Below, piece by piece: positions 1 through 58,503 of a DNA stretch of 64,000 bases (position 1 is the first letter of the stretch; each line of letters starts with the position of its first letter). The notes beneath the pieces were generated by a model, which saw only the letters and a list, made by a program, of their open reading frames with translations, was not told the DNA's origin and did no database searches. The position numbers and the translations under genes were made by a program. Origin of the DNA: an uncultured delta proteobacterium (lineage in GTDB: Bacteria; Desulfobacterota; Binatia; UBA9968); assembly GCA_963816145.1 (NCBI GenBank), contig CAWFJP010000030.1, positions 256,001 to 320,000 of the forward strand, in the 5' to 3' direction.

Positions 1-2397
1 CCGCTGAATAAGATCATCGTCCGGCTTGAATTCTAAGTCATCGAGCGATTCTCGAAGCTGGTCAAGCATCAACAAAGATTTAGTGTGAAACCCCCTTGAT
101 TCGGCGCCGGGTCCGGTTAAGTCCACCAACTTGTCAAAGGCTTGTTCGCGCAAATGTTGCCGTAAAAGTGGGTTAGTTGCCTTTAACGATAACTCCCGAG
201 ATAAGACAGCCTCCGAGTGTTTTATCAATGGATCAGAGGGGCGCATACGTGAAGCTGCATCTAAATACTTTTTTGCAAGCTCCAGACTACCTCCTTCGTG
301 ATTCATTTCAAAAATTGCGTGTTGTTGCAGTAAATACGGATCCTCACCGGCAATCTCATGTGCTGCATCATAAAACCGTCTACCCAACTCCTGGGACCGA
401 AAGGTATCGCCAACGTTTCTACCCCTGACCAATTGCCAAAATGCCGTCGAATCACACGCGTAGTCGAGATTTAAACCTTTTAAGAGTCGCAAAAGCACGT
501 CAAACCGCTGTTCTGGATCCACCAATACCTGCTCGAAAACCAACTGCGCTACGTGTTGATGGCGAGCCGCATACATCATATCACCGCTATATTTGTCGTG
601 CCTCGCAGTTAACACATGTTCTAACGGCAGAAAAAACCGGTCTCGAAATTCGTTGAAGCGAATACCACTAACCCTAGATATTAATCCCGCTCGAACGGTC
701 ACACCTAAACGATTAAGAGCGCAGACATCTAGATACAATAGTTGAGCCTCGGTAGGCGAAATACCTCTGTACTCATCCAACAGAATTTCCTCGAACGGTC
801 GCCCCAACGTCAATTCGTGAAGAGCAACGAGCAGCTGTCGTTCCGCACGTTTGACAAAAGCGTCCAAGCGCTCGGGAAAGGTGAGGTTTTCGAGCAATCC
901 AAGAGCACGATGTGACTCAAGAAGTTCCAAAAGATCGCGGATTTCACGTTCGTTAAGAAACCGAACCGGAAACTCATTGCTTACGAACGGATCCAAATCA
1001 GCACACCGAATATTCCATTCGTTATCACGTTCCGCACCAATAATCGTAACTGGCAATTTCTCCGCCTTGCAGCTTCTGAGTAAAGCCTTTACCTCGTCAC
1101 GAAATGTAGCAACTCGGTCAACAAAACAAAAAATGCGTTGTTTTGTAAGTGCGGAAACTTCACGAATAGCATCAAATCGGAGAGAGCCACCGGCTTTCAA
1201 AAACATTACGACCTTTTCAAATTCATGTGCAGCTTCCCATGCTATTCTCTTCAAGCAGACCGTTTTTCCATTTCCCGCCGGCCCTTTCAACACATAGAAA
1301 TCTACAAGATCAGATCGTTGCTCTTCTTCTGGTAAAATCGCGTCGACTATTACCGTGTCAGTTATAGCTCTTCGCGCGTCTAATTTTTGAGCTATACACC
1401 CCCATCCTAAATCGTAACCCCGATAAAATTCTGCTGGACGCTGCGATTGAATTGGCATGTCAGGAAATACATGATCCACATCATCGGACAAAAAAGAAAG
1501 AAGCAGATCGCTCTCATTCGGATGAGCGACACCGAAATACGCACGTAGTGATGACTTTCCACCACCGTAGGACCGGGGCAAAATCCTTTGGTTCTTGGGA
1601 ATTGCTTGGCTAATCGCTTCGAGAAATTTGTCAAACGTGGCATCAATTGGTGTAACTCGTTGCCGCGTCCAATAGCGCTTTTCAACATCTTCCAAATTCG
1701 GAGCTACGCAGAAGTAGCCCGGCCGATGCAGGTTTTCATCGAATAAATCAAACAGAATCGCCTGGATATGGGGGTCACTTACTGAATAGCCACAGAAAAT
1801 AAAAGGAAACTCTCGCCCCCAATCTCGAACTCGTTCAAAAAGGCGACTGCGCTGCTGCGACCATTTTGCGTATTGTTCCGTCGCTAAGATGAATGGCGCG
1901 TCACGGTCATAAGGATGTCCGATACAACCATGCAATTTTACATATTGTAATGGAAAGGGATATTTCTTCATCTCCGTTTCTATTAATTGACCATTTTTGA
2001 AAAACGGAATCAGCTGCTGGAGTTTCTCCCCCTGCTTGTCGTAAGCACTCTCGATAACAAGATCCAAATTCGTACTTATGATTGCATGCCAGCGAAACGT
2101 CGGAATCAGCTTGTGAAATTCGGCAGCCGAAAACTCTTTGAGTATTTCCGCAACGAAAAGCTGAACCTGATCGAGGCTGGCTTCGTTAGCGGCAAGCTCA
2201 GCGACTTCGGACAGACCTCGATGCCTGAGCTTACCCCCCAAGAAATGATCACAGATCTGATCCCGAAGCTCTGGGCCCGTGGGAATAGACGCCGCTCGTG
2301 GATGTAAAGCACCGCGGCTTGCGCCTGCTCCAAGGAATAACACTGCTCGTTGCTCCGAGACAGCGGCAATTAGGGCCGGTGGTAGTTCGATATCCAT
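1..2397 (-). CDS. SIR2-like NADase domain + P-loop (STAND-like) NTPase + helical/TPR-like region; Avs5-like defence protein, truncated by the window edge
   Basis: Absent from the ORF track because there is no stop in the window. Manual translation from ATG 2397 stays open for 799 codons: MDIELPPALIAAVSEQRAVLFLGAGAS..., IISTNLD, YVKLHGC, FIFCGYSVSDPHI (SIR2_2 motifs); Walker A GPAGNGKT (~1261-1284); Walker B IFCFVD; ERDNEW; TPR-like DPYLLQQHAIFEM...LELAKKYL. AT-richer than neighbours. Confidence 0.85.
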   Translation of the reverse strand, partial: MDIELPPALIAAVSEQRAVLFLGAGASRGALHPRAASIPTGPELRDQICDHFLGGKLRHRGLSEVAELAANEASLDQVQLFVAEILKEFSAAEFHKLIPTFRWHAIISTNLDLVIESAYDKQGEKLQQLIPFFKNGQLIETEMKKYPFPLQYVKLHGCIGHPYDRDAPFILATEQYAKWSQQRSRLFERVRDWGREFPFIFCGYSVSDPHIQAILFDLFDENLHRPGYFCVAPNLEDVEKRYWTRQRVTPIDATFDKFLEAISQAIPKNQRILPRSYGGGKSSLRAYFGVAHPNESDLLLSFLSDDVDHVFPDMPIQSQRPAEFYRGYDLGWGCIAQKLDARRAITDTVIVDAILPEEEQRSDLVDFYVLKGPAGNGKTVCLKRIAWEAAHEFEKVVMFLKAGGSLRFDAIREVSALTKQRIFCFVDRVATFRDEVKALLRSCKAEKLPVTIIGAERDNEWNIRCADLDPFVSNEFPVRFLNEREIRDLLELLESHRALGLLENLTFPERLDAFVKRAERQLLVALHELTLGRPFEEILLDEYRGISPTEAQLLYLDVCALNRLGVTVRAGLISRVSGIRFNEFRDRFFLPLEHVLTARHDKYSGDMMYAARHQHVAQLVFEQVLVDPEQRFDVLLRLLKGLNLDYACDSTAFWQLVRGRNVGDTFRSQELGRRFYDAAHEIAGEDPYLLQQHAIFEMNHEGGSLELAKKYLDAASRMRPSDPLIKHSEAVLSRELSLKATNPLLRQHLREQAFDKLVDLTGPGAESRGFHTKSLLMLDQLRESLDDLEFKPDDDLIQR

Positions 2398-2577
2398 GGG
2401 CGTGCCTTCTAATCCTTTTCCTTTGAGAATTCGGGTCAGCCGTAACAACTACATTAATCTATTTGCTTTTCGCGCGCGACCTTGCCAACGCCGCTACTAG
2501 CGGTCACTGCAGCTTTTGGATCCACTCAAATGAGTACTGGGATCATTAGAAACCCCAACAGGATCACGTCTTGCCTA

Positions 2578-3574
2578 TTAACCTTCTCCTTCGGATCTAG
2601 CGAAGTACGCTCTTAGCACCCGCATCATGTTGCCGCCGAGGATCTTGCCGATCGCCTCGTCGGAATAATTGCGCCGCTGAAATTCCGCCGCCAAATTGTC
2701 GCGGTCCAGCAGTTTGGCGCCGATGCCGTTGCGCCGCACGACGCGGTCGTCACTCCAGTCGCGCTTTTTGAGCTCCGCCGCGTAGGACGGCAGATACGGC
2801 GCGATGCGCTTGGTGTCTTTGTACGAGCGGTGATAATCGTCTTGCGCCGCCACGCCGATGTGATCGACGCCGACGAGCTTGACGCAGTAGTCGACCCAAT
2901 CGACATATTCGCCGACGCTGGTATTGGCGCGCACGTCCTGGCAGATCACCCCGCCCCGCTTCGCCGCCGCGACGATCAGCGGATCGGGCGCGCTGCGCGG
3001 CCGGTTGAACAGCGTGCGGCTAGTGGAGTGGCTGAAGATCACCGGCTGCTCGGACAATTCCAACGCTTCAAGGGCCGTGCGGTCGCCGGAATGCGACAGA
3101 TCGATGACGATGCCAAGGCGATTCATACGCTTGATCGCTTGGCGGCCGAGCGATGTGAGTCCGCTGTCGACCTCGCTGGCATGGCCGCAGCCGTAGTAGC
3201 TGTTTTCGCTGAAGGCCAGGGACAGACAGCGCAAACCCAAATCGAAGAAGGCATCGAGCAGTCCCAAACTGTCGCTCAACGCTTTGGGATTCTGCAGACC
3301 CGAGCAGCACTCCCACTTTGTTGCGACTCTCCTCGCGATCAAGATCGGCGCCGCTGCGCAGAATATACGCCTGGGGATGCTCGCGCACGATCGCCTTGAC
3401 GATTTCAAAGTTCTCGATGCTTTCAATCGTGTCGTCCCATGTCAGATTGGCGGTGCAACCGACCACCGCGACGTCTTGGCCCAGCAGTTGATCGATAAAC
3501 GGCGCCGACAAATCCTCCGGCCAGGGCGCGCCGAGACAGTTGACCACGCCACCATTGAATGCGCTTGTACTCAT
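2578..3574 (-). CDS. Membrane dipeptidase (peptidase M19) family protein, split by a +1 frameshift at ~3300
   Basis: N-terminal part MSTSAFNGG...KVGVLLG in ORF 3068..3715 continues as LQNPKAL...GLTSLGRQAIKRMNRLGIVIDLSH...PVIFSHS...VGVDHIG in ORF 2578..3426; extra G in GGG at ~3299-3301. Confidence 0.8.
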
Positions 3575-47778: not shown

Positions 47779-48747
47779 ATGACCCGCAGGTTTCTCCATA
47801 GCTTGAACGGAATTTTGACCGTCGCGCTGACCGTCCTGGCCACGACAAATTTCGCCGCGGCGGAAAAAATCCGCCTGGCATTGCCGTCGCGTTCCATGGG
47901 TTATCTGCCCATGTTCATCGCGCTGCAGCGCGGCTTTCTCAAAGACGAAAATCTAGACCTCGAACTCCCGGCCATGCTGCCCAACATCGCGCACAACGCG
48001 CTGTTGAGCGGCGAGGTGGAGTATCACGGCGTTGCCGACTCGGCGCTGCGCCTGGCCGCCAAAGGGGCGCCGCTGAAGTCGATCTTTTTCAGCGCCCGGT
48101 TGCCGAATTACTTTTTAATGGCCAAGCCAACGATCAAATCGGTCAGCGAACTGCGCGGCAAATTAGTCGCCGTCAGCCGTTTCGGCGGCACCACCGATTT
48201 GGCCGCCCGGGTCGCGCTCCAAGCCAACGGCCTCGACCCGCATAAAGATGTCGTCTTGATCATGATCGGCCTGGGCAACACGCGCAATGCCGCACTCATG
48301 GCCGGCTCGGTGGACGCCAACATCGCCAACCCGCCGGACAATTCCATGCTCAAACAAAAAGGCTTTCGCGAATTGTTGTTTCTCGGCGATGCCATGGAGT
48401 TCCCCAGCAACGGCTTTACCACCACTGAGCGCCGGCTGGCTGAGAACCGCGATCAGGTGAAGCGCCTGCTGCGCGCGTTTTACCGCGGCCTGCTGTTTTC
48501 CCGCGACAATCCCGAAGAATCGATCAAGATCGTCGAGCGCGAGTGGAAGCTCGACCCGGCGATGGCGCGCGACTCCTATCAATCGATCATGAAGGCCGCC
48601 AGCCGCGACGGCGCTTCTTCTGACGCCGGTCTGAAAGTCCATATCAAATTGATCCAGAATTCCGACAAAAGCATCGGTGACATTCCCTTGAACAAGATCG
48701 TCGACTTCCGCGTCCTCGAAGAAGTCCGGCGCGAGATTTCCCGCTAA
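47779..48747 (+). CDS. ABC substrate-binding protein (NMT1/SsuA-like)
   Basis: Signal peptide, RGFLKDENL, ELRGKLVAVSRFGG. Confidence 0.85.
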   Translation: MTRRFLHSLNGILTVALTVLATTNFAAAEKIRLALPSRSMGYLPMFIALQRGFLKDENLDLELPAMLPNIAHNALLSGEVEYHGVADSALRLAAKGAPLKSIFFSARLPNYFLMAKPTIKSVSELRGKLVAVSRFGGTTDLAARVALQANGLDPHKDVVLIMIGLGNTRNAALMAGSVDANIANPPDNSMLKQKGFRELLFLGDAMEFPSNGFTTTERRLAENRDQVKRLLRAFYRGLLFSRDNPEESIKIVEREWKLDPAMARDSYQSIMKAASRDGASSDAGLKVHIKLIQNSDKSIGDIPLNKIVDFRVLEEVRREISR

Positions 48748-50840: not shown

Positions 50841-51650
50841 ATGAACCAAGAACTGACCGCCAGCATCCCCTATACCGTGGACACGGGTGAAAAACTCGTG
50901 AACGAAACCTTCGGCCCGAATAACATACGGCGACGCAAGACGGGCAGCCACGAACTCATGACCATGGCCGTGCGCAATGGCCGGTTGCTTGGCGGCGAGA
51001 TTTCACTGGAGCAAAACGGCTTCGTCTTGGTTGACCACAAAACCAAGGTCGCCGACTTCTTCGATACCCGGCAACTTGAGTCGGTGTACTACCGGGAAGT
51101 CGAGCAATTGATCAAACGAGAGTCAGGCGCATCCCGGGTGGTGATTTTCGATCATACGCTACGCTCCGGCGACGAAGCCGAGCGCGAAAAGAAGCTGATC
51201 CGCGAACCGGTCATGTCGGCGCACAACGATTATACCGAATGGTCGGGACCGAACCGAGTGCGCGAGTTTCTGCCGGACGAAGCGGAAGACTTGCTGACCC
51301 GCCGCTTCGCGATCGTTCAAGTCTGGCGCGCGATCAATCAACCGATCCAAACCAATCCCCTCGCGCTGGCCGACGCCAAGAGTGTGGCGATGGAAGATCT
51401 GGTCGTCGCCGAGCGCCGCTACCCACACCGGGTCGGCCAAACCTATCGATTGAAATACAACCCCAATCATCGCTGGTATTATTTTCCCGAGATGCGCCGC
51501 GACGAAGCGCTGGTGTTTAAAGTCTACGATTCCGAAATGGACGGCCGCGCGCGCTTCACGCCGCACACATCCTTCGACGATCCCAACACTCCGGCCGGGG
51601 CTCCGGCACGGCAAAGCATCGAAGTGCGCGCTTTCGCCTTTTATAATTGA
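50841..51650 (+). CDS. CmcJ/NvfI (AsaB-like) family oxidoreductase
   Basis: FDHTLR, AHNDYT, QVWRAI..PLALAD, HRWYYFPEM, FTPHTSF, RQSIEVR. Confidence 0.85.
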   Translation: MNQELTASIPYTVDTGEKLVNETFGPNNIRRRKTGSHELMTMAVRNGRLLGGEISLEQNGFVLVDHKTKVADFFDTRQLESVYYREVEQLIKRESGASRVVIFDHTLRSGDEAEREKKLIREPVMSAHNDYTEWSGPNRVREFLPDEAEDLLTRRFAIVQVWRAINQPIQTNPLALADAKSVAMEDLVVAERRYPHRVGQTYRLKYNPNHRWYYFPEMRRDEALVFKVYDSEMDGRARFTPHTSFDDPNTPAGAPARQSIEVRAFAFYN

Positions 51651-51714
51651 ACATTCCACAGCGAGAATTCACGAGAATGCGATTCAAGTCGACTCAAAGT
51701 TGACTTGCAAATTT

Positions 51715-51793
51715 CTGTCATTCCGGCGTCGGCCGGAATCCAGGTTTGTTCCGCTGAACTCTAAGCTGGATACCGGCTTTCGCCGGTATGACG
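51715..51793. repeat. TGTC/CGTC-type REP dimer
   Basis: CTGTCATTCCGGCGTCGGCCGGAATCCAG...CTGGATACCGGCTTTCGCCGGTATGACG. Confidence 0.8.
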
Positions 51794-51901
51794 GAACAGC
51801 TCTTCATCAGAGGCGATGCTCAATTCGGGTGACGGTGCGGCCTGATTTCAATCTAAACCGAAATGGCGTGCGGAGTTTGGAAAAAATTTCTCGCCGAACC
51901 A

Positions 51902-51929
51902 TTCACAAGTTTTTCTGCTTTGCTATAAT
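51902..51929 (+). promoter_or_regulatory. Putative sigma70 promoter (extended -10) upstream of the transposase-PolA unit
   Basis: TTCACA-N16-TATAAT with TG at 51921-51922. Confidence 0.55.
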
Positions 51930-52180
51930 CATCTGCGAACATCAACCTTCCGAACTGTGAGCGTTTGATCCTGTTTTGCATTCAACTATCGCGTCACGAG
52001 CTTACGGCGACGCTTGGCGCAGCCCGATAATCGCCAAGTTCCGGCGCGCAATCCATTGATGGAGAAACCGAATCAAAATGTCTAAACCTATGCCGAAACC
52101 CGAGGTGGCTCGTAACAGGTTATTGCGTTGCCGCCTGTAGGGCGAGAATCTATGATTGCAAGGCTCCCTGCTAAAGTTCC

Positions 52181-53833
52181 ATGAGAATAGCCCAGTCGGT
52201 TCAACTAACCAAAGACGAAATACGGATACTGACGAAATGGGCACGAGGTCGTCGGACCCCAACTCGGCAGATGCAACGAGCGAAGATCGTTCTATTGGCC
52301 GCCGAGGGACATCAGAATAATACGATCGCGAACATGCTGGGCATTAACCGAGTGCGGGTGGCGCGCTGGCGCCAGCGGTTCGCAAATCATCGGTTAGCAG
52401 GAATTGAAAAAGATGCTCCACGATCAGGCACCAAGCGTCGCTTTGACCAGAATTTGGGGCAGCATGATTCGGCGACTCTGGAGCAGCATCTCCACACAAA
52501 ACGATTGTATCGCGATTTATCCAGCAAAGCCGATGTTTCCGACAGCTCCCCCCACACCATCCATGTAATTGACCCCTTACCACCTTCGATAGCACTGTCA
52601 TCCCAGCAACGGGAGGCCCTTGATGCGATCGTTGAAGAGCAACCGAGTCTTCCAGCCTCAGAGTGGCCTGCACGCGCAATTTTAATGTGGAGCAACGGAG
52701 TCACACAATCAACTACGGCTCGGGATCTCGGTATTAGCGAGGAGACCATCAAACTTCTACGTCATCGCTGGTTGTCATCAATGGACCGTATTGATGCAGC
52801 AGAGAAGAGGTTGACCAAGGAATTGACCAAGTTCTTGTCACTCATTTGTCAGACTCTAAGCGAGGAAACACCTGCCGAAACGCCACTGGATGCTCCTGCG
52901 GATATCGCCAAAACAAGAACCGCCAACCGAGAGAAGCCAACTACGAGTATTGAATTGCGACCGGCGACTAACGCACTAATCGAGATCCTTCATCACAAGC
53001 CAAACGTCTACGGAATTAACAGAAGCAATTGGAACCAACGAAGCCTCGCGCAAGCATTTGAAATACTATATGGCCAGAGGCCATCAAAAAGTACGGTATC
53101 CCGGCTATTGAAGCAAGCTGGTCTCAGCTGGAAGAAGTCGAGAAAAGTTTTGACAAGTCCAGATCCCAATTACCGCGAAAAGGTCGAGTTGTTATTAACA
53201 ACACTCCAATCTCTGAAAGCTGACGAGGATTTGTTCTTTATAGATGAACTAGGACCACTTCAGGTCAAAAGGTACGGAGGTAGATGCTACACTCCGAGGG
53301 GAAGCACGCCCACCCATCCGCAGAATCAGCGTACGAAAGGGTCTATCACCTTATACGGGGCGTTGAGTGCTACCACCAACCAAGTAACTTGGTTCTATAG
53401 GAATACGAAAGACTCAGCGGGAATGATCGACTTAGTCGAGATAGTTTACAATCAGCATCACGACAAAGCGAGAATCTATCTGACCTGGGATGCTGCCTCT
53501 TGGCACGGATCGAATGAGTTGGTGGAGTGGGCTGACAACTTCAATTCTTGGAACAACGCAAACAGCACCGGCCCAACTATCGAGTTCGTTCCGCTCCCGG
53601 CGAGCGCACAGTTCCTGGATGTCATTGAGGCAGTTTTCAGTGCTATGAAAAAGGCAGTGGTCCACAATTCGGACTATCAGTCGGAGGAAGAAATGAAGAC
53701 TGCCATATCCGTGCACTTTTGTGAACGAAACGAGTTCTTTAAACACAACCCCAAACGCGCCGGCAAGAAAATATGGCAAATAGACTTCTTCGAAGACCAA
53801 AACTACATACGGTCTGGGAACTATAAGGAATGA
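52181..53833 (+). mobile_element. IS630-family DDE transposase, elongated (550 aa) with an extra N-terminal HTH module
   Basis: N-terminus RAKIVLLAAEG...VARWRQRF...DAPRSG; second HTH ARAILMWSNG...ARDLGISEETI; PNVYGINRSNW...STVSRLLKQAGLSWKK; catalytic FFIDE, TWDAASWH, LDVIEAVF. Confidence 0.88.
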
Positions 53834-53839
53834 AAAGGC

Positions 53840-56143
53840 ATGAGCCAGTTTTTGGTCGATACAGCATTTATCATCGAGCGGACATACCAGACGTTCTTTG
53901 GGACTCCGCTTCTGACAGCACAGGGAAGCGACCTTACTTTCACCTTCGCCTTTGCAAGAGATTTTCTAAGGCTGCGATGCGAGTTGAGTATTAAGGCGGG
54001 AGTTCTGGTTATAGGAAGGGAATCTCACTCACTCACCACCCATCAGAACATTGAGAGTGTTATTATTTTTCTTCAGCAACTGAAGATTCCTTACATCCAC
54101 GATCCGGCGAATCCCGGTTTAAAAATCATCGCCTCTATCAGTTCCCAATTCACGCATATCGTTTCGGGGGACAAGCGATGTCTACAACTGTGCAGCGACG
54201 ACCTTACCGTCGTCCTCGTTGGAGGTGCTAGCCGCTACCAATACGACTGGATGTCCGCGGATAAGGTCGGAACGAAGATGGGCATCGCTCCGAAAGATAT
54301 ACCCACCTACCTAGCGTTAACGGAAGCATCGAACGCGCAAGCAATAACCAGTAGACAAGCGGTCCGGCTCATCGAGCTGTATGGCGACTTGGATTCTATT
54401 TACGAGACCCTATCAAAGGTCGCGTCAGGCCAAATCCGAAAGACGCTGGTAAAAAACGAGACTCGAGCCCGGGATTACTATTCGGAGAGTAAAGCTAACC
54501 GAGCCAAGGAGTCATGCTCCTGCAATGTTCAAACCTTTTCTTTGAGCGACTTGGACACTGACAGAAATCGGCAACTTTTGAGAACTCACGGTTTTCACTC
54601 ACTTTTGCCACTATTGGCAAATCCTACGGATGCCCGGCTGGATTTGAATGAGATTACACCCAGACCAGACGCCTATCACGCCGTGGTTGACGTAAAGGGG
54701 ATCCTAGAACTCGAATCTTTGCTTGTGTCATCAAAGCAATGTTCAATAGACACAGAATCCGATGACAAGGATCCTAGGGAGGCACATTTACTTGGAGTTG
54801 CCTTCTCGGTAAAGGGCGGAGAAGCTTATTTCGTCCCGCTGATCGAGGAGGACCTCAAGGGATTGACCAAAGATGATGTGCTGAAGTTTCTAAAGCGGGT
54901 ATGCGATAGCGACATAGGTTTCATTGGACATAATATAAAGTACGATCACTTACTCCTCCGGCGAAACGGCATAAGGATTAAGTCGATTCACTTTGACACG
55001 ATGCTGGCCGCCTATGACTGTCATGGTGACTGGGACTTTTTCAATCTTCGTGACTTAGCTCAGAGATTCCTGCACGAGAAAATCAAATCCTACTCGGATT
55101 TGGTCGATGAAGGCAAAACCTTTCTAGACTTGCCCTTAAAAGAGTTGGTTAACCACGCTTGCCAGGACGCTGACGTGACCATGCGACTGTATCCCATTTT
55201 CTTGGCGGAGTTGAACGATCGAAATATAATTGAACAGTATTACGAACATACCATGCGTCAGATGATGCATCTAGCTGAGCTAGAATTCCAAGGGATTGCA
55301 GCAGATTTGGGGCAAATCGATGCGATCAGGCGATCTCTTGGTAAAAAGGCTTCTGACTTGAAGGACGATATCTGTAGAAAAGTGGGGATAGCCTTTGACC
55401 TGGACTCGGAGAAGGATCTTTCGGGAGTATTTAAGGAGGCTATAGTTTTGAGGGGCTATCTCGCGCCAAGAAAGATCACGATGGCAATATTAGAGCAGAT
55501 GGCCATTAGCGATCCGATTATGCGTTTGGTCATTCAGTATAAAAGACTCCGTCGTCGTATTTCGGGGCTGGAATCGATCTCCGCTTCTGTAACTGACGGA
55601 AAGATCTATCCGCTCTTTAGTCAAATTAAATCTCGTGCTGGTCTTCTGACCACGGTCAAACCAAGTTTGTTCGAGAACGATACATTGCCAGAACTCAAGT
55701 CTTGCTTCGATAGCGGTGTAAGGGATTATTTCAGGGATAGACAGCGAGCATTGGACACGTTATCGCAAGTGACTCATGATACTGCCCTAAGCGAACGCCA
55801 GACGTGTAAGTCTAACGCCGACGTTTTCACGACGGATCAAGTTGGGATGCAGAACCTTGACCACGAAGAATGCTTGCTTTCTCTCGCAGTGGGCCATTCC
55901 GATTCACAGCTGAGTAAAATGTTTCTCATGGATCGACCGAAGGTTGACATGATGCGGCATGATTTCACCAAGAGATATTCGACTATGTTTCGGTGGCTGG
56001 ACAATTATCGCCGGAAAGCCCAGGCAAACGGCTATTCCGCGATTAACGGCAAGCGAAAATACATTGATGGTCTCAAGAGTTCAGATATTTCTAGGAGAGA
56101 ACGAGCAACGGAACATGTGGTGAGGTGGTTGATACGTTATTAA
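53840..56143 (+). CDS. DNA polymerase I-derived protein: degenerate 5' nuclease, intact-looking 3'-5' exonuclease, degenerate and truncated polymerase domain
   Basis: FLVDT...IVSGDK...LIELYGDLDSIY (5'-3' exo fold); SIDTES, IGHNIKYD, FDTMLAAY, HACQDADVT (ExoI-III); thumb ELEFQGIAAD/FDLDSEKDL; ends at ...RERATEHVVRWLIRY before motif C. Confidence 0.85.
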   Translation: MSQFLVDTAFIIERTYQTFFGTPLLTAQGSDLTFTFAFARDFLRLRCELSIKAGVLVIGRESHSLTTHQNIESVIIFLQQLKIPYIHDPANPGLKIIASISSQFTHIVSGDKRCLQLCSDDLTVVLVGGASRYQYDWMSADKVGTKMGIAPKDIPTYLALTEASNAQAITSRQAVRLIELYGDLDSIYETLSKVASGQIRKTLVKNETRARDYYSESKANRAKESCSCNVQTFSLSDLDTDRNRQLLRTHGFHSLLPLLANPTDARLDLNEITPRPDAYHAVVDVKGILELESLLVSSKQCSIDTESDDKDPREAHLLGVAFSVKGGEAYFVPLIEEDLKGLTKDDVLKFLKRVCDSDIGFIGHNIKYDHLLLRRNGIRIKSIHFDTMLAAYDCHGDWDFFNLRDLAQRFLHEKIKSYSDLVDEGKTFLDLPLKELVNHACQDADVTMRLYPIFLAELNDRNIIEQYYEHTMRQMMHLAELEFQGIAADLGQIDAIRRSLGKKASDLKDDICRKVGIAFDLDSEKDLSGVFKEAIVLRGYLAPRKITMAILEQMAISDPIMRLVIQYKRLRRRISGLESISASVTDGKIYPLFSQIKSRAGLLTTVKPSLFENDTLPELKSCFDSGVRDYFRDRQRALDTLSQVTHDTALSERQTCKSNADVFTTDQVGMQNLDHEECLLSLAVGHSDSQLSKMFLMDRPKVDMMRHDFTKRYSTMFRWLDNYRRKAQANGYSAINGKRKYIDGLKSSDISRRERATEHVVRWLIRY

Positions 56144-56204
56144 GCGCCAGTATGTGGACCTATCCACCAGCCAGTTTTGAGATCTAACCTCAATTTCTGA
56201 ACCA

Positions 56205-56235
56205 GGATTTGGGTAGCGTCCTAAATCCCAATTTT
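56205..56235 (+). terminator. Possible terminator hairpin after the PolA-like gene
   Basis: GGATTTGGG-TAGCGT-CCTAAATCC followed by CAATTTT. Confidence 0.35.
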
Positions 56236-56467
56236 GGCCTGGGAACGTTTGACACCGGTTTAGCTTGACCCCAAGTTAATTCATTTCTCGCATCGAAGGA
56301 TTAACAAACCCATTCGCTCTGATATATTAGAGATTAACAATCGGAATCGCTCGTTTGTCAGCACTGAGTCAATCATTCGTTGGGGGGTACTTAACTGTGA
56401 TTTATTCAGCGCCGACCCCGCCGATTTGGTACCACACATTCTATGCTATGGAGAGCCGTGAATTGAG

Positions 56468-58503
56468 ATGTCTAAAGCTATGCTAAAAACCGAAGCGGTA
56501 GCCACGCCGGCGCCGCCCAGCGAACCGCGAAAGATCGTCACCGCCGCCGAGATGGGCGCGCGCCAGAGAGAAATTTCCGTATCGGAATTTTTTACCAAGA
56601 ATCGCCACCTGTTGGGCTTCGACAGTCCGCGCAAGGCGCTGCTTACTTGCATCAAAGAAGCGGTCGATAACGCACTGGACGCTTGTGAAGAAGCCGGCAT
56701 CTTGCCCGAAGTCATCGTCAAGCTCGAAGTGGTGCCCAATGGCGGGATTACGGCGGCGCCGAGCCAAGCAACGCGCTTTCGCGTCACCGTGATCGATTAC
56801 GGTCCCGGCATCGTGCGCCAGCAGATTCCGCCGATTTTCGCCAAGCTGCTTTACGGCTCGAAGTTCCATCGTTTGCGCATGAGCCGCGGCCAGCAAGGCA
56901 TCGGCATCTCCGCCGCCGGCATGTACGCCCAGCTCACCACCGGCAAGCCGGTGCAGATCATTTCCCGCACCAGCGCCAGAGCGCCGGCGCACTATTTCGA
57001 AGTCCAGATCGACACCAAGAAAAACGAGCCGCGCATTTTCGAGAGTAAGAAAATCGACTGGGAAAACCACCGCGGCACACAGGTCAGTTTAGAAATCGAA
57101 GGGCGTTATCAAAAGGGCCGCGCCTCGGTGGATGAATATTTAGAACAAACGGCCATCGCCAATCCGCATGTCAAGCTCGTCTACCATACGCCTGAAGGCG
57201 AGATAAAGCAGTATCCGCGCACCATCGAAGAGCTGCCGCCGCAACCGCGCGAGATCAAGCCTCATCCCTACGGCATCGAGTTCGGTATGATGCTGAAGAT
57301 GTTGCACGACACCAAAAGCCATTCTCTGGTGGGTTTTCTGTCCAGCGAGTTTAGCCGGGTGTCATCCAGTCTGGCTCAAGAGATTTGTAAAACCGCCAAA
57401 CTCTCGCCCAACGCCCGGCCGCGCGATCTCCATGGCGCCGCCGCTGAAACCTTTTACAAAGCCATGCAGTCGACCAAGATCATGGCGCCACCGAGCAGCT
57501 GCATATCGCCCATCGGCGAACGGGCGATATCTGCACGGCCTGTACAAACAGATCAAAGGCGAATTTTACACCGCTGTGACCAGGCCGCCGGCGGTCTATC
57601 GCGGCAATCCGTTTGTCATCGAGGCCGGCCTCGCGTTCGGAAAAAGTCCGGAGCAGACGGTAAAAGTCAAAGAACCAAAGCATCCCGCTCGCCGAAGGCG
57701 AAGACAAAGACGACGACAACGAATTGGCGAGCGTGATCCGCTACGCCAATCGCGTGCCGCTGCTCTACCAGCAGTCGGCTTGCGCGACGTTTAAATCGGT
57801 CCTCGACACCACCTGGCGCAATTACGGCGTGGCGCAGTCGCGCGGCGCCCTGCCCGCCGGGCCGATGGTGATCTTCGTGCACATGGCGTCGGTCTGGGTG
57901 CCGTTCACCAGCGAGTCCAAGGAAGCCATCGCCGACTACGACGAGATTCGCAAAGAAATCAAACTCGCTCTCCAAGAGTGCGGCCGGCGGCTGGGAGTCT
58001 TCTTGCGGCGGCGCGAGCGCGCCAAGGGGGAATTTCGCCGGCGCAATATCTTCGCGCTTTACATCGAGGAAGTCGTCGATGCCTGCGCACGCTTGAAAGG
58101 CGGCAAGCTCGCCAAGGAAAAGCTCAAAGAACAGTTGCAAAAGATCGCCAGCAAACGCACCGGCGGCGAGAAAACCGACGAGATCCTGGGCCACGATGGC
58201 GGCGGGCCTGAAGGCCTGCCTCATTCGATCATCGTCACCGCCGACGGCACCGAAGGCGATGCTCCTAGCCTGCCAAGCTCGGATGAGAGCGCGGCGATGG
58301 CGCCTGCCGCAAGCGAGACCGAGCCGGAGCTGCCCATACTCGTCGACGATGATCCGGCGCCAGCAGCCAGAAACAAAAACGTCCGTGTAAAAGCAGCTAA
58401 TGCCGATCAAGCCAAAGATGGCGCGAAACAGATGACGCTAGCCTTGGACAGAAGGGCCAAACCTACAGGAAAGAAAGATGGCGGCAAAAAAAGCAAAAAA
58501 TAA
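56468..58503 (+). CDS. top6B: DNA topoisomerase VI subunit B, with two +1 frameshifts (~57530 and ~57680)
   Basis: EISVSEFF.KN.HLLGF, KEAVDNALDA, DYGPGI, SRGQQGIGISAA, KPHPYG, TRPPAVYRGNPFVIEAG, RYANRVPLLY, VPFTSESKEAIA, spread over three frames. Confidence 0.9.

Follow-up and report, generated by a model that had tools for sequence, protein, structure and literature searches.

A transposase gene and a gene derived from DNA polymerase I (Pol I), carried side by side by an uncultured delta proteobacterium, form a conserved and selected two-protein module that is co-inherited and found in metagenome-assembled genomes (MAGs) labelled with several phyla. The pair lies in a 64,000-nt stretch of DNA, hereafter the window (contig CAWFJP010000030.1, positions 256,001 to 320,000, of assembly GCA_963816145.1; GTDB lineage Bacteria, Desulfobacterota, Binatia, UBA9968), whose source genome is referred to as G000. 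The first gene, tnp, encodes a transposase of the IS630 clade with an intact DDE triad, and the second, dPol, encodes a protein with the domain order of Pol I in which the polymerase appears to be inactivated. A first-pass annotation, made from the letters of the window, had described two uninterrupted, co-oriented open reading frames (ORFs) 6 bp apart, a layout borne out by the ORF positions (Table 1) and by the junction between them, TGA AAAGGC ATG, with its spacer of 6 nt.

Homologues of the two genes proved to be neighbours well beyond the window, which bears on the possibility, raised in that annotation, of a chance insertion beside an orphan polA relic. An order-level search of 123 genomes identified true dPol homologues in four of them (G000, G092, G090, and G055), and in a phylum-wide draw of 401 genomes the single positive was G000 itself. 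In G092, G090, and G055, dPol is immediately preceded by a tnp homologue on the same strand, with identities of 80, 69, and 60% for tnp and of 76, 55, and 36% for dPol. A scan of species-representative genomes, in which 6 of 80 loci were checked for a tnp neighbour, added three MAGs with the same arrangement (labelled Deltaproteobacteria, Verrucomicrobiae, and Bacteroidetes), one of which carries three tandem tnp paralogues ahead of dPol; the loci L035, L036, and L039, 24–26% identical, have no tnp neighbour and were taken as ordinary PolA. Overall, tnp is found directly upstream of dPol in 7/7 genomes (window included), with a gap of 6 nt here and 15–18 nt elsewhere. A search with the transposase C-terminal domain further recovered 80 metagenome loci at 62–91% identity, 71 of which were informative, i.e., retained at least 200 nt of DNA 3′ of tnp: dPol begins at most 300 nt after tnp in 57 of these 71 loci, mostly at 15–24 nt. 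Some of the 57 hold only the first 50–270 residues of dPol though the DNA continues, and thus represent broken copies. Across metagenomes from soil, wetland, and sediment, the module is widespread.

Purifying selection acts on both genes. The ratio of non-synonymous to synonymous substitution rates (dN/dS) was 0.19–0.32 in 13 comparisons covering both genes, and 0.24–0.32 for dPol, so that the PolA-like gene is not evolving neutrally. Pairwise distances of tnp and dPol are also correlated across 27 loci (Mantel r 0.69, reached by 0/2000 permutations), a correlation that is descriptive because related loci are not independent.

The first-pass annotation had considered dPol to follow the PolA domain order and to be dead as a polymerase, and both statements held when profiles, alignments, and a structural model were brought together. 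dPol matches the 3′–5′ exonuclease family PF01612 (1.2e-15) and the DNA_pol_A family PF00476 (1.3e-12), the latter limited to profile positions 5–294 of 381; two 5′–3′ exonuclease families match weakly, below their cut-offs, and the full-length Pol I model NF004397 gives 215 bits vs a cut-off of 720. Three domains follow each other in the Pol I order: a dead 5′-nuclease-like domain (residues ~1–260), a 3′–5′ exonuclease with its motifs kept (~285–458), and a region with thumb, fingers, and part of the palm, from which motif C and the motif A aspartate are missing (~490–767). A profile built from 18 family members aligns best to the Escherichia coli Klenow fragment (7e-56), over Klenow residues 4–521 of 605 only. 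When these members were aligned with the canonical Pol I of sister genomes, the motif A aspartate fell in a deletion in 18/18, and 18/18 terminate ~30 residues ahead of motif C; the longest dPol family member among the 120 relatives listed has at most 775 aa. The 5′ nuclease appears to be dead as well, a loss absent from the first-pass annotation: when we considered the 19 columns that are acidic in all four references (three canonical Pol I and the stand-alone 5′–3′ exonuclease of G000), 2 were kept in at least 16 of the 18 members, 1 in 9–15, and 16 in fewer than 9. Of the exonuclease residues, D304, E306, and N365 are present in 101/101 members, D369 and D443 in 100/101, and H439 stands in place of the Exo III tyrosine in 98/101.

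The AlphaFold2 model of dPol (mean predicted local distance difference test score, pLDDT, 84.7; predicted template modelling score, pTM, 0.65) has full-length Pol I (6vde, 1taq) and Klenow as its best Foldseek matches, extending over about 825–831 columns for 6vde_A and 1taq and reaching a target-normalised TM score of 0.63–0.64 for Klenow, with E-values of 9e-25 to 6vde and 3e-23 to 8oo6. Sequence and model together thus depict dPol as an entire Pol I scaffold of which the proofreading nuclease alone can probably still be catalytic, since the 5′-nuclease acids, the motif A aspartate, and the motif C end are gone and the exonuclease residues remain. The family includes about 30 full-length representatives (50%-identity clusters) of 759–779 aa, down to 30% identity, and is sharply bounded, with canonical Pol I beginning near an E-value of 1e-52. 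In a protein atlas, the family is represented by a 327-member cluster whose commonest phylum label is Acidobacteriota. Separately, two divergent family A polymerase-like ORFs of 675 and 585 aa, neither canonical Pol I nor dPol, were noted in G090 (C75:29302–30240) and G018 (C15:14742–15374), with PF00476 matches of 4e-15 and 1e-22.

The partner gene matches the NCBIfam model NF033545 "IS630 family transposase" at 1.7e-51 (175 bits, cut-off 100) and contains Pfam DDE_3 along with several helix-turn-helix (HTH) families, arranged as an extra N-terminal HTH module, the two HTH domains typical of the clade, and the DDE_3 core. The motifs FFIDE, TWDAASWH, and LDVIE begin at residues 352, 435, and 479, and give the triad D355, D437, and E483, which is present in 120/120 tnp relatives among those listed, in agreement with the D-D-E assignment of the first-pass annotation. 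The clade comprises 1,007 clusters (90%-identity; median length 423 aa) at E-values up to 1e-10. The C-terminal 289 residues of tnp are 56–91% identical between loci and the N-terminus is variable: N-termini are modular across loci and include PRiA4_ORF3, Sleeping-Beauty-type HTH, and extra HTH_23 modules, and the extra HTH module of the window is a second match to positions 1–71 of the IS630 profile. At L031:824–8277, three tandem tnp paralogues with differing N-terminal domains (one of them PRiA4_ORF3) stand ahead of one dPol; in the middle paralogue, the TWD stretch with the second catalytic aspartate is missing, and AbiEi/AbiEii genes lie downstream.

Structure prediction of the pair, as the first-pass annotation had proposed, was run on the two proteins (dPol with tnp residues 319–550) and passed its controls: the complex score (ipSAE) was 0.74 (runs 0.74, 0.75, and 0.74) vs 0.00 for the best of three controls. 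In a calibration, the 0.74 mark was reached by 58/80 solved complexes and 2/110 mismatched pairs, counts that are only rough because our own alignments were used as input. The runs share at least 81% of contacts, with a partner pLDDT of at least 74. This suggests that tnp and dPol bind each other, mainly via the dead 5′-nuclease domain of dPol, where predicted contacts include residues 17–25, 36, 40, 130–133, and 251–257; the remaining dPol interface comprises residues 549, 553, 687–693, and 746–752, and the tnp interface residues 327–337, 403–427, 448–471, and 502–510. Family-invariant residues within this predicted interface include G21, L24, R40, and S254 of dPol, and T403, W404, D411, D417, and E420 of tnp. 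Searches of the PDB found no transposase–Pol I complex, and hence a high score derived from a memorised structure is unlikely.

The notion that the pair had been acquired as one unit was borne out directly, and empty-site alleles, which the first-pass annotation had suggested looking for in related genomes, were found. In five sister species (G084, G002, G003, G004, and G080), the CmcJ-like gene to the left of the unit, the intergenic region, and top6B to its right are contiguous, and alignments to the two flanks of the window overlap by ~33 nt at the top6B start; the insert was present in none of 10 sister loci examined. Likewise, contigs from three of four metagenome runs (X1, X4, and X10; soil and sediment) join position 52109 to position 56500, skipping 4390 nt with no shared letters and thus lacking the whole segment. 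These empty-site contigs differ from G000 by 0–3 letters and have depths of 8.0, 15.5, and 7.8, those over the insert itself have a depth of about 0–4.6 (zero-depth bins of the insert in single runs were not used as evidence), and in run X2 a contig spans the filled right junction. The joint itself is unlikely to be false because the two copies of the top6B start share no exact run longer than 9 nt. With both empty and filled alleles in metagenomes, the insertion segregates in nature, and the inserted DNA is exactly 52110–56499. A second case of presence/absence was seen in G055, where the unit lies within a 5.5-kb stretch absent from G056.

The insertion point follows codon 11 of top6B. The empty allele retains the left copy of the top6B start, and the right copy, which is part of the insert, now heads the gene. 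The insert-borne copy, which corresponds to the ~55 nt ahead of the insertion point, aligns both to the single copy of the sister species and to the left copy, with 77% identity between resident and insert-borne sequences (over 56448–56493) and differences that are mostly transitions. The unit is single copy in G000 (one copy of each gene), and no other copy of the insert's non-coding ends was found in that genome.

Table 1 Features of the tnp–dPol locus (positions within the window)
Feature	Position	Strand	Description and basis
Inserted DNA, 4,390 bp	52110–56499	+	Empty-site joint, sister species, low G+C
tnp ORF	52181–53833	+	550 aa; IS630-clade DDE transposase
dPol ORF	53840–56143	+	767 aa; Pol I-derived protein
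Resident top6B ribosome-binding region and first 11 codons	52059–52109	+	Contiguous with left-flank homology; stranded left of insertion
Insert-borne diverged copy of top6B ribosome-binding region and first 11 codons	56445–56499	+	Right end of insert; restores top6B start
top6B, target gene	56468–58503	+	Start now supplied by insert; also split by 1-nt insertion near 57672; alignment to orthologues
Promoter-like site	52128–52156	+	TTGCCG-17-TATGAT, 9/12; 25 nt ahead of tnp start codon; weak
Two 21-nt direct repeats, 33 nt start to start	56299–56352	+	Overlap outward-facing promoter-like site ahead of rebuilt top6B start

We next considered the ends of the unit. Compared with the closest units, the window loses DNA similarity 6 nt (L111) or 28 nt (G092) ahead of the tnp start codon and 90 nt past the dPol stop; in another subfamily, similarity ends within about 5–50 nt of the stop codon. 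A diverged copy of the 5′ region of the downstream gene is found on both sides of the unit in the window, L180, and L165. For instance, L180 displays a 194-nt repeat (~65% identical, by eye) that covers a promoter-like region, a leader, and the first ~45 codons of an IS66-family transposase gene: its left copy forms, by in-frame fusion, the N-terminus of tnp, and its right copy heads the downstream IS66 gene. In L165, a 43-nt repeat (41/44 aligned columns identical; 93% by blastn) with a promoter-like module stands before tnp and before the downstream gene, which from its translation alone looked IS5/IS1182-like. Taken together, the repeats and the modular N-termini would fit a scenario in which 5′ ends of target genes, frequently transposase genes, were captured in frame one after another; the same facts would also fit an element carrying a copy of its previous target. 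The alternative, a long duplication of the target with later divergence, fits poorly in the window, because the left copy equals the empty allele and the right copy differs from it at 23%, and the adjoining flanks show at most one difference. An 87-nt perfect repeat at L156 could be either a duplication or an assembly effect, and the start of core tnp resembles the reverse-complemented dPol stop region over only 7 nt, too little to be considered. The guess of a tRNA gene downstream of L155 was wrong, ARAGORN finding none in 7 loci.

Several rearranged units were noted in passing. At L124:3–4565, one unit ends after dPol residue ~52 and abuts the 3′ end of an inverted second tnp–dPol unit, and in L131 (3178–9058) and L141, a second transposase gene of the clade (52–54% identical) faces the dPol stop, 58 nt away. 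Four loci (L165:449, L166:111, L168:91, and L169:2089) share a sharp left boundary, at which four unrelated left sequences give way to TA plus the same 12 or more bases; this boundary possibly marks where a larger element, or a host element, containing the unit ends.

The two functions put forward in the first-pass annotation, a targeting or end-processing partner of the transposase and an antiphage module, remain the leading candidates. On balance, we lean towards a self-mobile, non-canonical element in which dPol would serve as the subunit that handles DNA ends. In such an element, tnp would make the DNA breaks and joins, and dPol would hold the 3′ end at a nick or primer-template-like junction and trim it by its exonuclease; together, the two proteins may give seamless, homology-assisted insertion into gene 5′ ends, often those of other transposase genes. 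In Pol I, a primer terminus is held by the polymerase domain, and the adjacent strand downstream is the substrate of the 5′ nuclease. As the modelled tnp core occupies the place of the 5′ nuclease, the pair could present the held and trimmed 3′ end to the DDE site, and the position of joining would be set by pairing of the element's right end with the target. One can extend this scheme to a new pathway of the IS630 superfamily, which we regard as speculative and unlikely to hold in its entirety: without inverted repeats or target duplication, a right-end copy of the previous target would guide seamless homing to the same gene or transposase-gene family, holding and proofreading of the paired 3′ end would fall to the Pol I scaffold, the DDE subunit, docked at the former 5′-nuclease place, would cut and join, and tnp N-termini would be 5′ pieces of earlier targets captured in frame.

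Several observations weigh against self-mobility. First, the ends do not resemble those of a canonical IS630 element: terminal inverted repeats were found in the window neither by repeat search nor by local alignment (aligned to the reverse complement of the right end, the left end scores below the mean of shuffled sequences), and in none of 10 elements tested (z-score at most 1.6), and neither junction has a TA, the skipped segment starting with TC and ending with GT with no letters shared. The designation of an intact IS630 in the first-pass annotation thus stands for the transposase, by profile and DDE triad, and fails for an ordinary IS630 element, which would have inverted repeats and a TA duplication. 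Moreover, the non-coding ends are unconserved even between units 83–86% identical in DNA, leaving no evident sequence for a transposase to recognise, and flanking direct repeats were significant in only 5/26 loci tested. One of these five cases, the near-perfect 90-nt repeats around the G055 unit (C102:44271–44360 and 48588–48677; locus L188), was rejected as a long target duplication: the sequence is dispersed in G055, where at least 11 copies occur, some of them just upstream of ordinary genes on C10. Second, the pairing is not universal. Among the 71 informative loci, 14 hold tnp without dPol, 13 of these being 97–100% identical copies of one 3.4-kb segment in which tnp is preceded by overlapping HTH_3 and DUF6036 nucleotidyltransferase genes (L134:201–2996 and 12 near-identical loci). 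Third, some copies are broken: short dPol matches mark truncated units in L112, L115, L124, L130, L153, and L163, the tnp genes of L143 and L156 have in-frame stops, and the dPol of G092 (L028:6629–9002) is split over two overlapping frames of 227 and 587 aa, reflecting either a frameshift or a misassembly of this MAG. Finally, a presence/absence polymorphism can also be produced by recombination moving an island, without activity of its genes, and the transposition chemistry itself is something we infer. As further observations on the dPol-less segment, it has at least three different downstream flanks (L134/L139, L144/L146, and L140), and in L144 the C-terminal end of a dPol gene lies upstream of it.

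It is possible, if somewhat unlikely, that the pair is instead a domesticated module, in which a transposase-derived nuclease and a Pol I-derived junction-binding exonuclease would act jointly on foreign or replicating DNA to defend against phages, plasmids, or other transposons, and would spread passively with variable islands. The single copy per genome, the lack of inverted repeats or TA duplication, the purifying selection on both genes, and the variable modular tnp N-termini, including the tandem paralogues before one dPol at L031, would all suit such a role, as would the neighbourhood of the unit, where toxin–antitoxin, abortive-infection, or mobile-element genes are frequent (AbiEi/AbiEii, HTH_3 with DUF6036, integrase, Rep_trans, and several IS transposases). 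However, the majority of unit neighbours are non-defence genes, PADLOC-DB 2.0 yielded no match for tnp and only a weak DEDDh (CRISPR-associated) match for dPol (0.0018), and plasmid and phage collections contained no family member, just canonical PolA at ≤26% identity. The clean 4,390-bp insertion that rebuilds the start of its target resembles an element's own insertion and not island shuffling.

Alternatively, the unit could sit within an ordinary transposon whose ends lie further out, dPol being a passenger of a larger IS630-type or composite element with ends missed in short contigs. The shared left boundary with TA in L165, L166, L168, and L169, and the second clade transposase gene converging on the dPol 3′ end in L131, L141, and L124, point in this direction. 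We nevertheless consider this explanation improbable: in the window, the boundaries are base-exact by the empty allele, with neither inverted repeat nor TA, the inverted complement of the L165 boundary motif occurs in 0/214 loci, and neither co-evolution with the transposase nor a predicted complex with it would be expected of a passenger.

A third alternative, that dPol is a host repair factor replacing a missing polA, e.g., as a gap-binding exonuclease, with an incidental transposase gene, draws on the gene content of the host. G000 (99.5% complete, 31 contigs) has no canonical polA, and the sole PF00476 match in the assembly is dPol; compared with G004, polA and a neighbour (4.3 kb) are cleanly missing within a contig, the syntenic site being C12 at about 151384–151427. 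G055, G090, and G092 also lack a canonical PolA match. Such a match is likewise missing from 12 of the 31 genomes surveyed (G000 and 30 relatives), including all 5 of family f2, single-contig genomes among them. However, a rule tying dPol to polA loss was rejected: the dPol-bearing G123, G124, and G125 have canonical PolA, G056 and G089 have neither, and the seven dPol genomes lean to dPol presence being independent of polA absence. In addition, dPol lacks polymerase and 5′-nuclease residues, G000 has a separate 5′–3′ exonuclease gene (C15:96645–97424), and the insertion is absent from most cells of the natural population, so that we view a repair role as highly improbable. Species without Pol I usually keep a solo 5′–3′ exonuclease, according to a family A survey (PMC12926913), and G000 fits this pattern. 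Lastly, a chance IS630 insertion beside a decaying polA fragment, for which nothing speaks beyond the single locus, is refuted by the adjacency in other genomes and loci, the dN/dS values, the constant family length down to 30% identity, and the almost invariant exonuclease residues.

Comparison with known systems identified partial likenesses only. IS630 insertion sequences contain one gene, span about 1–1.4 kb, and usually occur in several copies per genome. The unit resembles members of the IS630/Tc1/mariner group (IS630, ISY100) in its HTH-HTH-DDE_3 transposase, which scores above the NF033545 cut-off and has an intact DDE, and differs from them in lacking terminal inverted repeats and TA duplication, in its 4.4-kb length with an obligatory second gene and a single copy per genome, and in the variable N-terminal add-ons and conserved C-terminal tail of tnp. 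Tn630 is a composite of two IS630 copies according to the available part of its description (PMC11544213), in which the words "polymerase" and "exonuclease" are absent. With Pol I (PolA1; Klenow 1kfs and 8oo6; full-length 6vde), dPol shares the three-domain order, the fold, and the Exo I–III motifs, but not the motif A aspartate, motif C, or the 5′-nuclease carboxylates; it is also shorter (~770 aa vs about 890–930), has a histidine for the Exo III tyrosine, and its gene is always coupled to a transposase gene. Casposons, Polintons, and pipolins similarly bring together an integrating enzyme and a polymerase-family protein on a mobile segment, but these use active family B polymerases that replicate the element, whereas dPol is of family A and without polymerase residues. 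By analogy, CRISPR adaptation can combine Cas1–Cas2 with a DEDDh/DnaQ-like exonuclease, i.e., a DNA-joining enzyme with a DEDD-type 3′–5′ exonuclease able to trim 3′ ends; unlike there, no Cas genes or repeat arrays were seen here, the joining enzyme is a DDE transposase, and the exonuclease is embedded in a whole Pol I scaffold. Two-protein transposition machines are also known from Tn7 TnsE and IS21 IstB, and TnsE directs insertion to 3′-recessed ends, a DNA form that a Pol I scaffold binds; neither protein has a sequence or fold relation to dPol, and both elements are bounded by defined inverted ends and make short target duplications.

The first-pass annotation had known of no described system with this architecture, and we found no description in the literature searched: full-text searches returned no paper in which a transposase is coupled to a family A polymerase that has been inactivated. 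The available text of two recent family A classifications (PMC12926913 and PMC10201439) has no word beginning with "transpos", their supplementary tables, which possibly list the group, being outside this check. A family A polymerase without polymerisation, under selection as the fixed partner of a transposase, thus goes unmentioned in the available text of these classifications. If the module is self-mobile, it would represent a DDE transposase working without inverted repeats, with a junction-binding exonuclease as subunit and an insertion that repairs the interrupted gene, which would be relevant to transposition mechanisms and possibly as a tool for seamless insertion. If it is a domesticated nuclease module, it would constitute a new architecture among bacterial conflict systems. 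Under either reading, it provides a concrete two-protein system with a predicted interface that is amenable to testing.

The surroundings of the unit agree with their first description, in which the pair was noted to be AT-richer than flanks named as CmcJ-like and top6B genes. G+C is 0.46–0.50 over about 52750–56500 vs 0.55–0.63 in both flanks, the left neighbour matches a CmcJ/NvfI family oxidoreductase (NF041278, 5.5e-93), and the right neighbour is top6B, present as two pieces. The outward promoter-like site at 56301–56328 reads TTAACA-16-TATATT (10/12, with TG). Promoter-like sites in the region are as many as expected from shuffles, so that the one ahead of tnp is a lead only and the outward one likewise belongs to a site count at chance level. 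An Rfam search of 51600–56600 returned nothing at E-values up to 1, and no RNA run was among the sequencing runs listed as containing the locus. The top6B gene is broken into ORFs of 422 and 259 aa, compared with intact orthologues of 674–708 aa in G084, G080, G007, and G008; split top6B ORFs likewise occur in G003 and G004, and the split in the window could be real decay of an element-interrupted gene or a sequencing error. A short dispersed repeat at 51712–51797, between the CmcJ-like gene and the native top6B promoter-like site (51902–51929), has ~160 blastn-short matches in G000 and a summed contig depth of about 390–3000 across four metagenome runs, with many loose ends.

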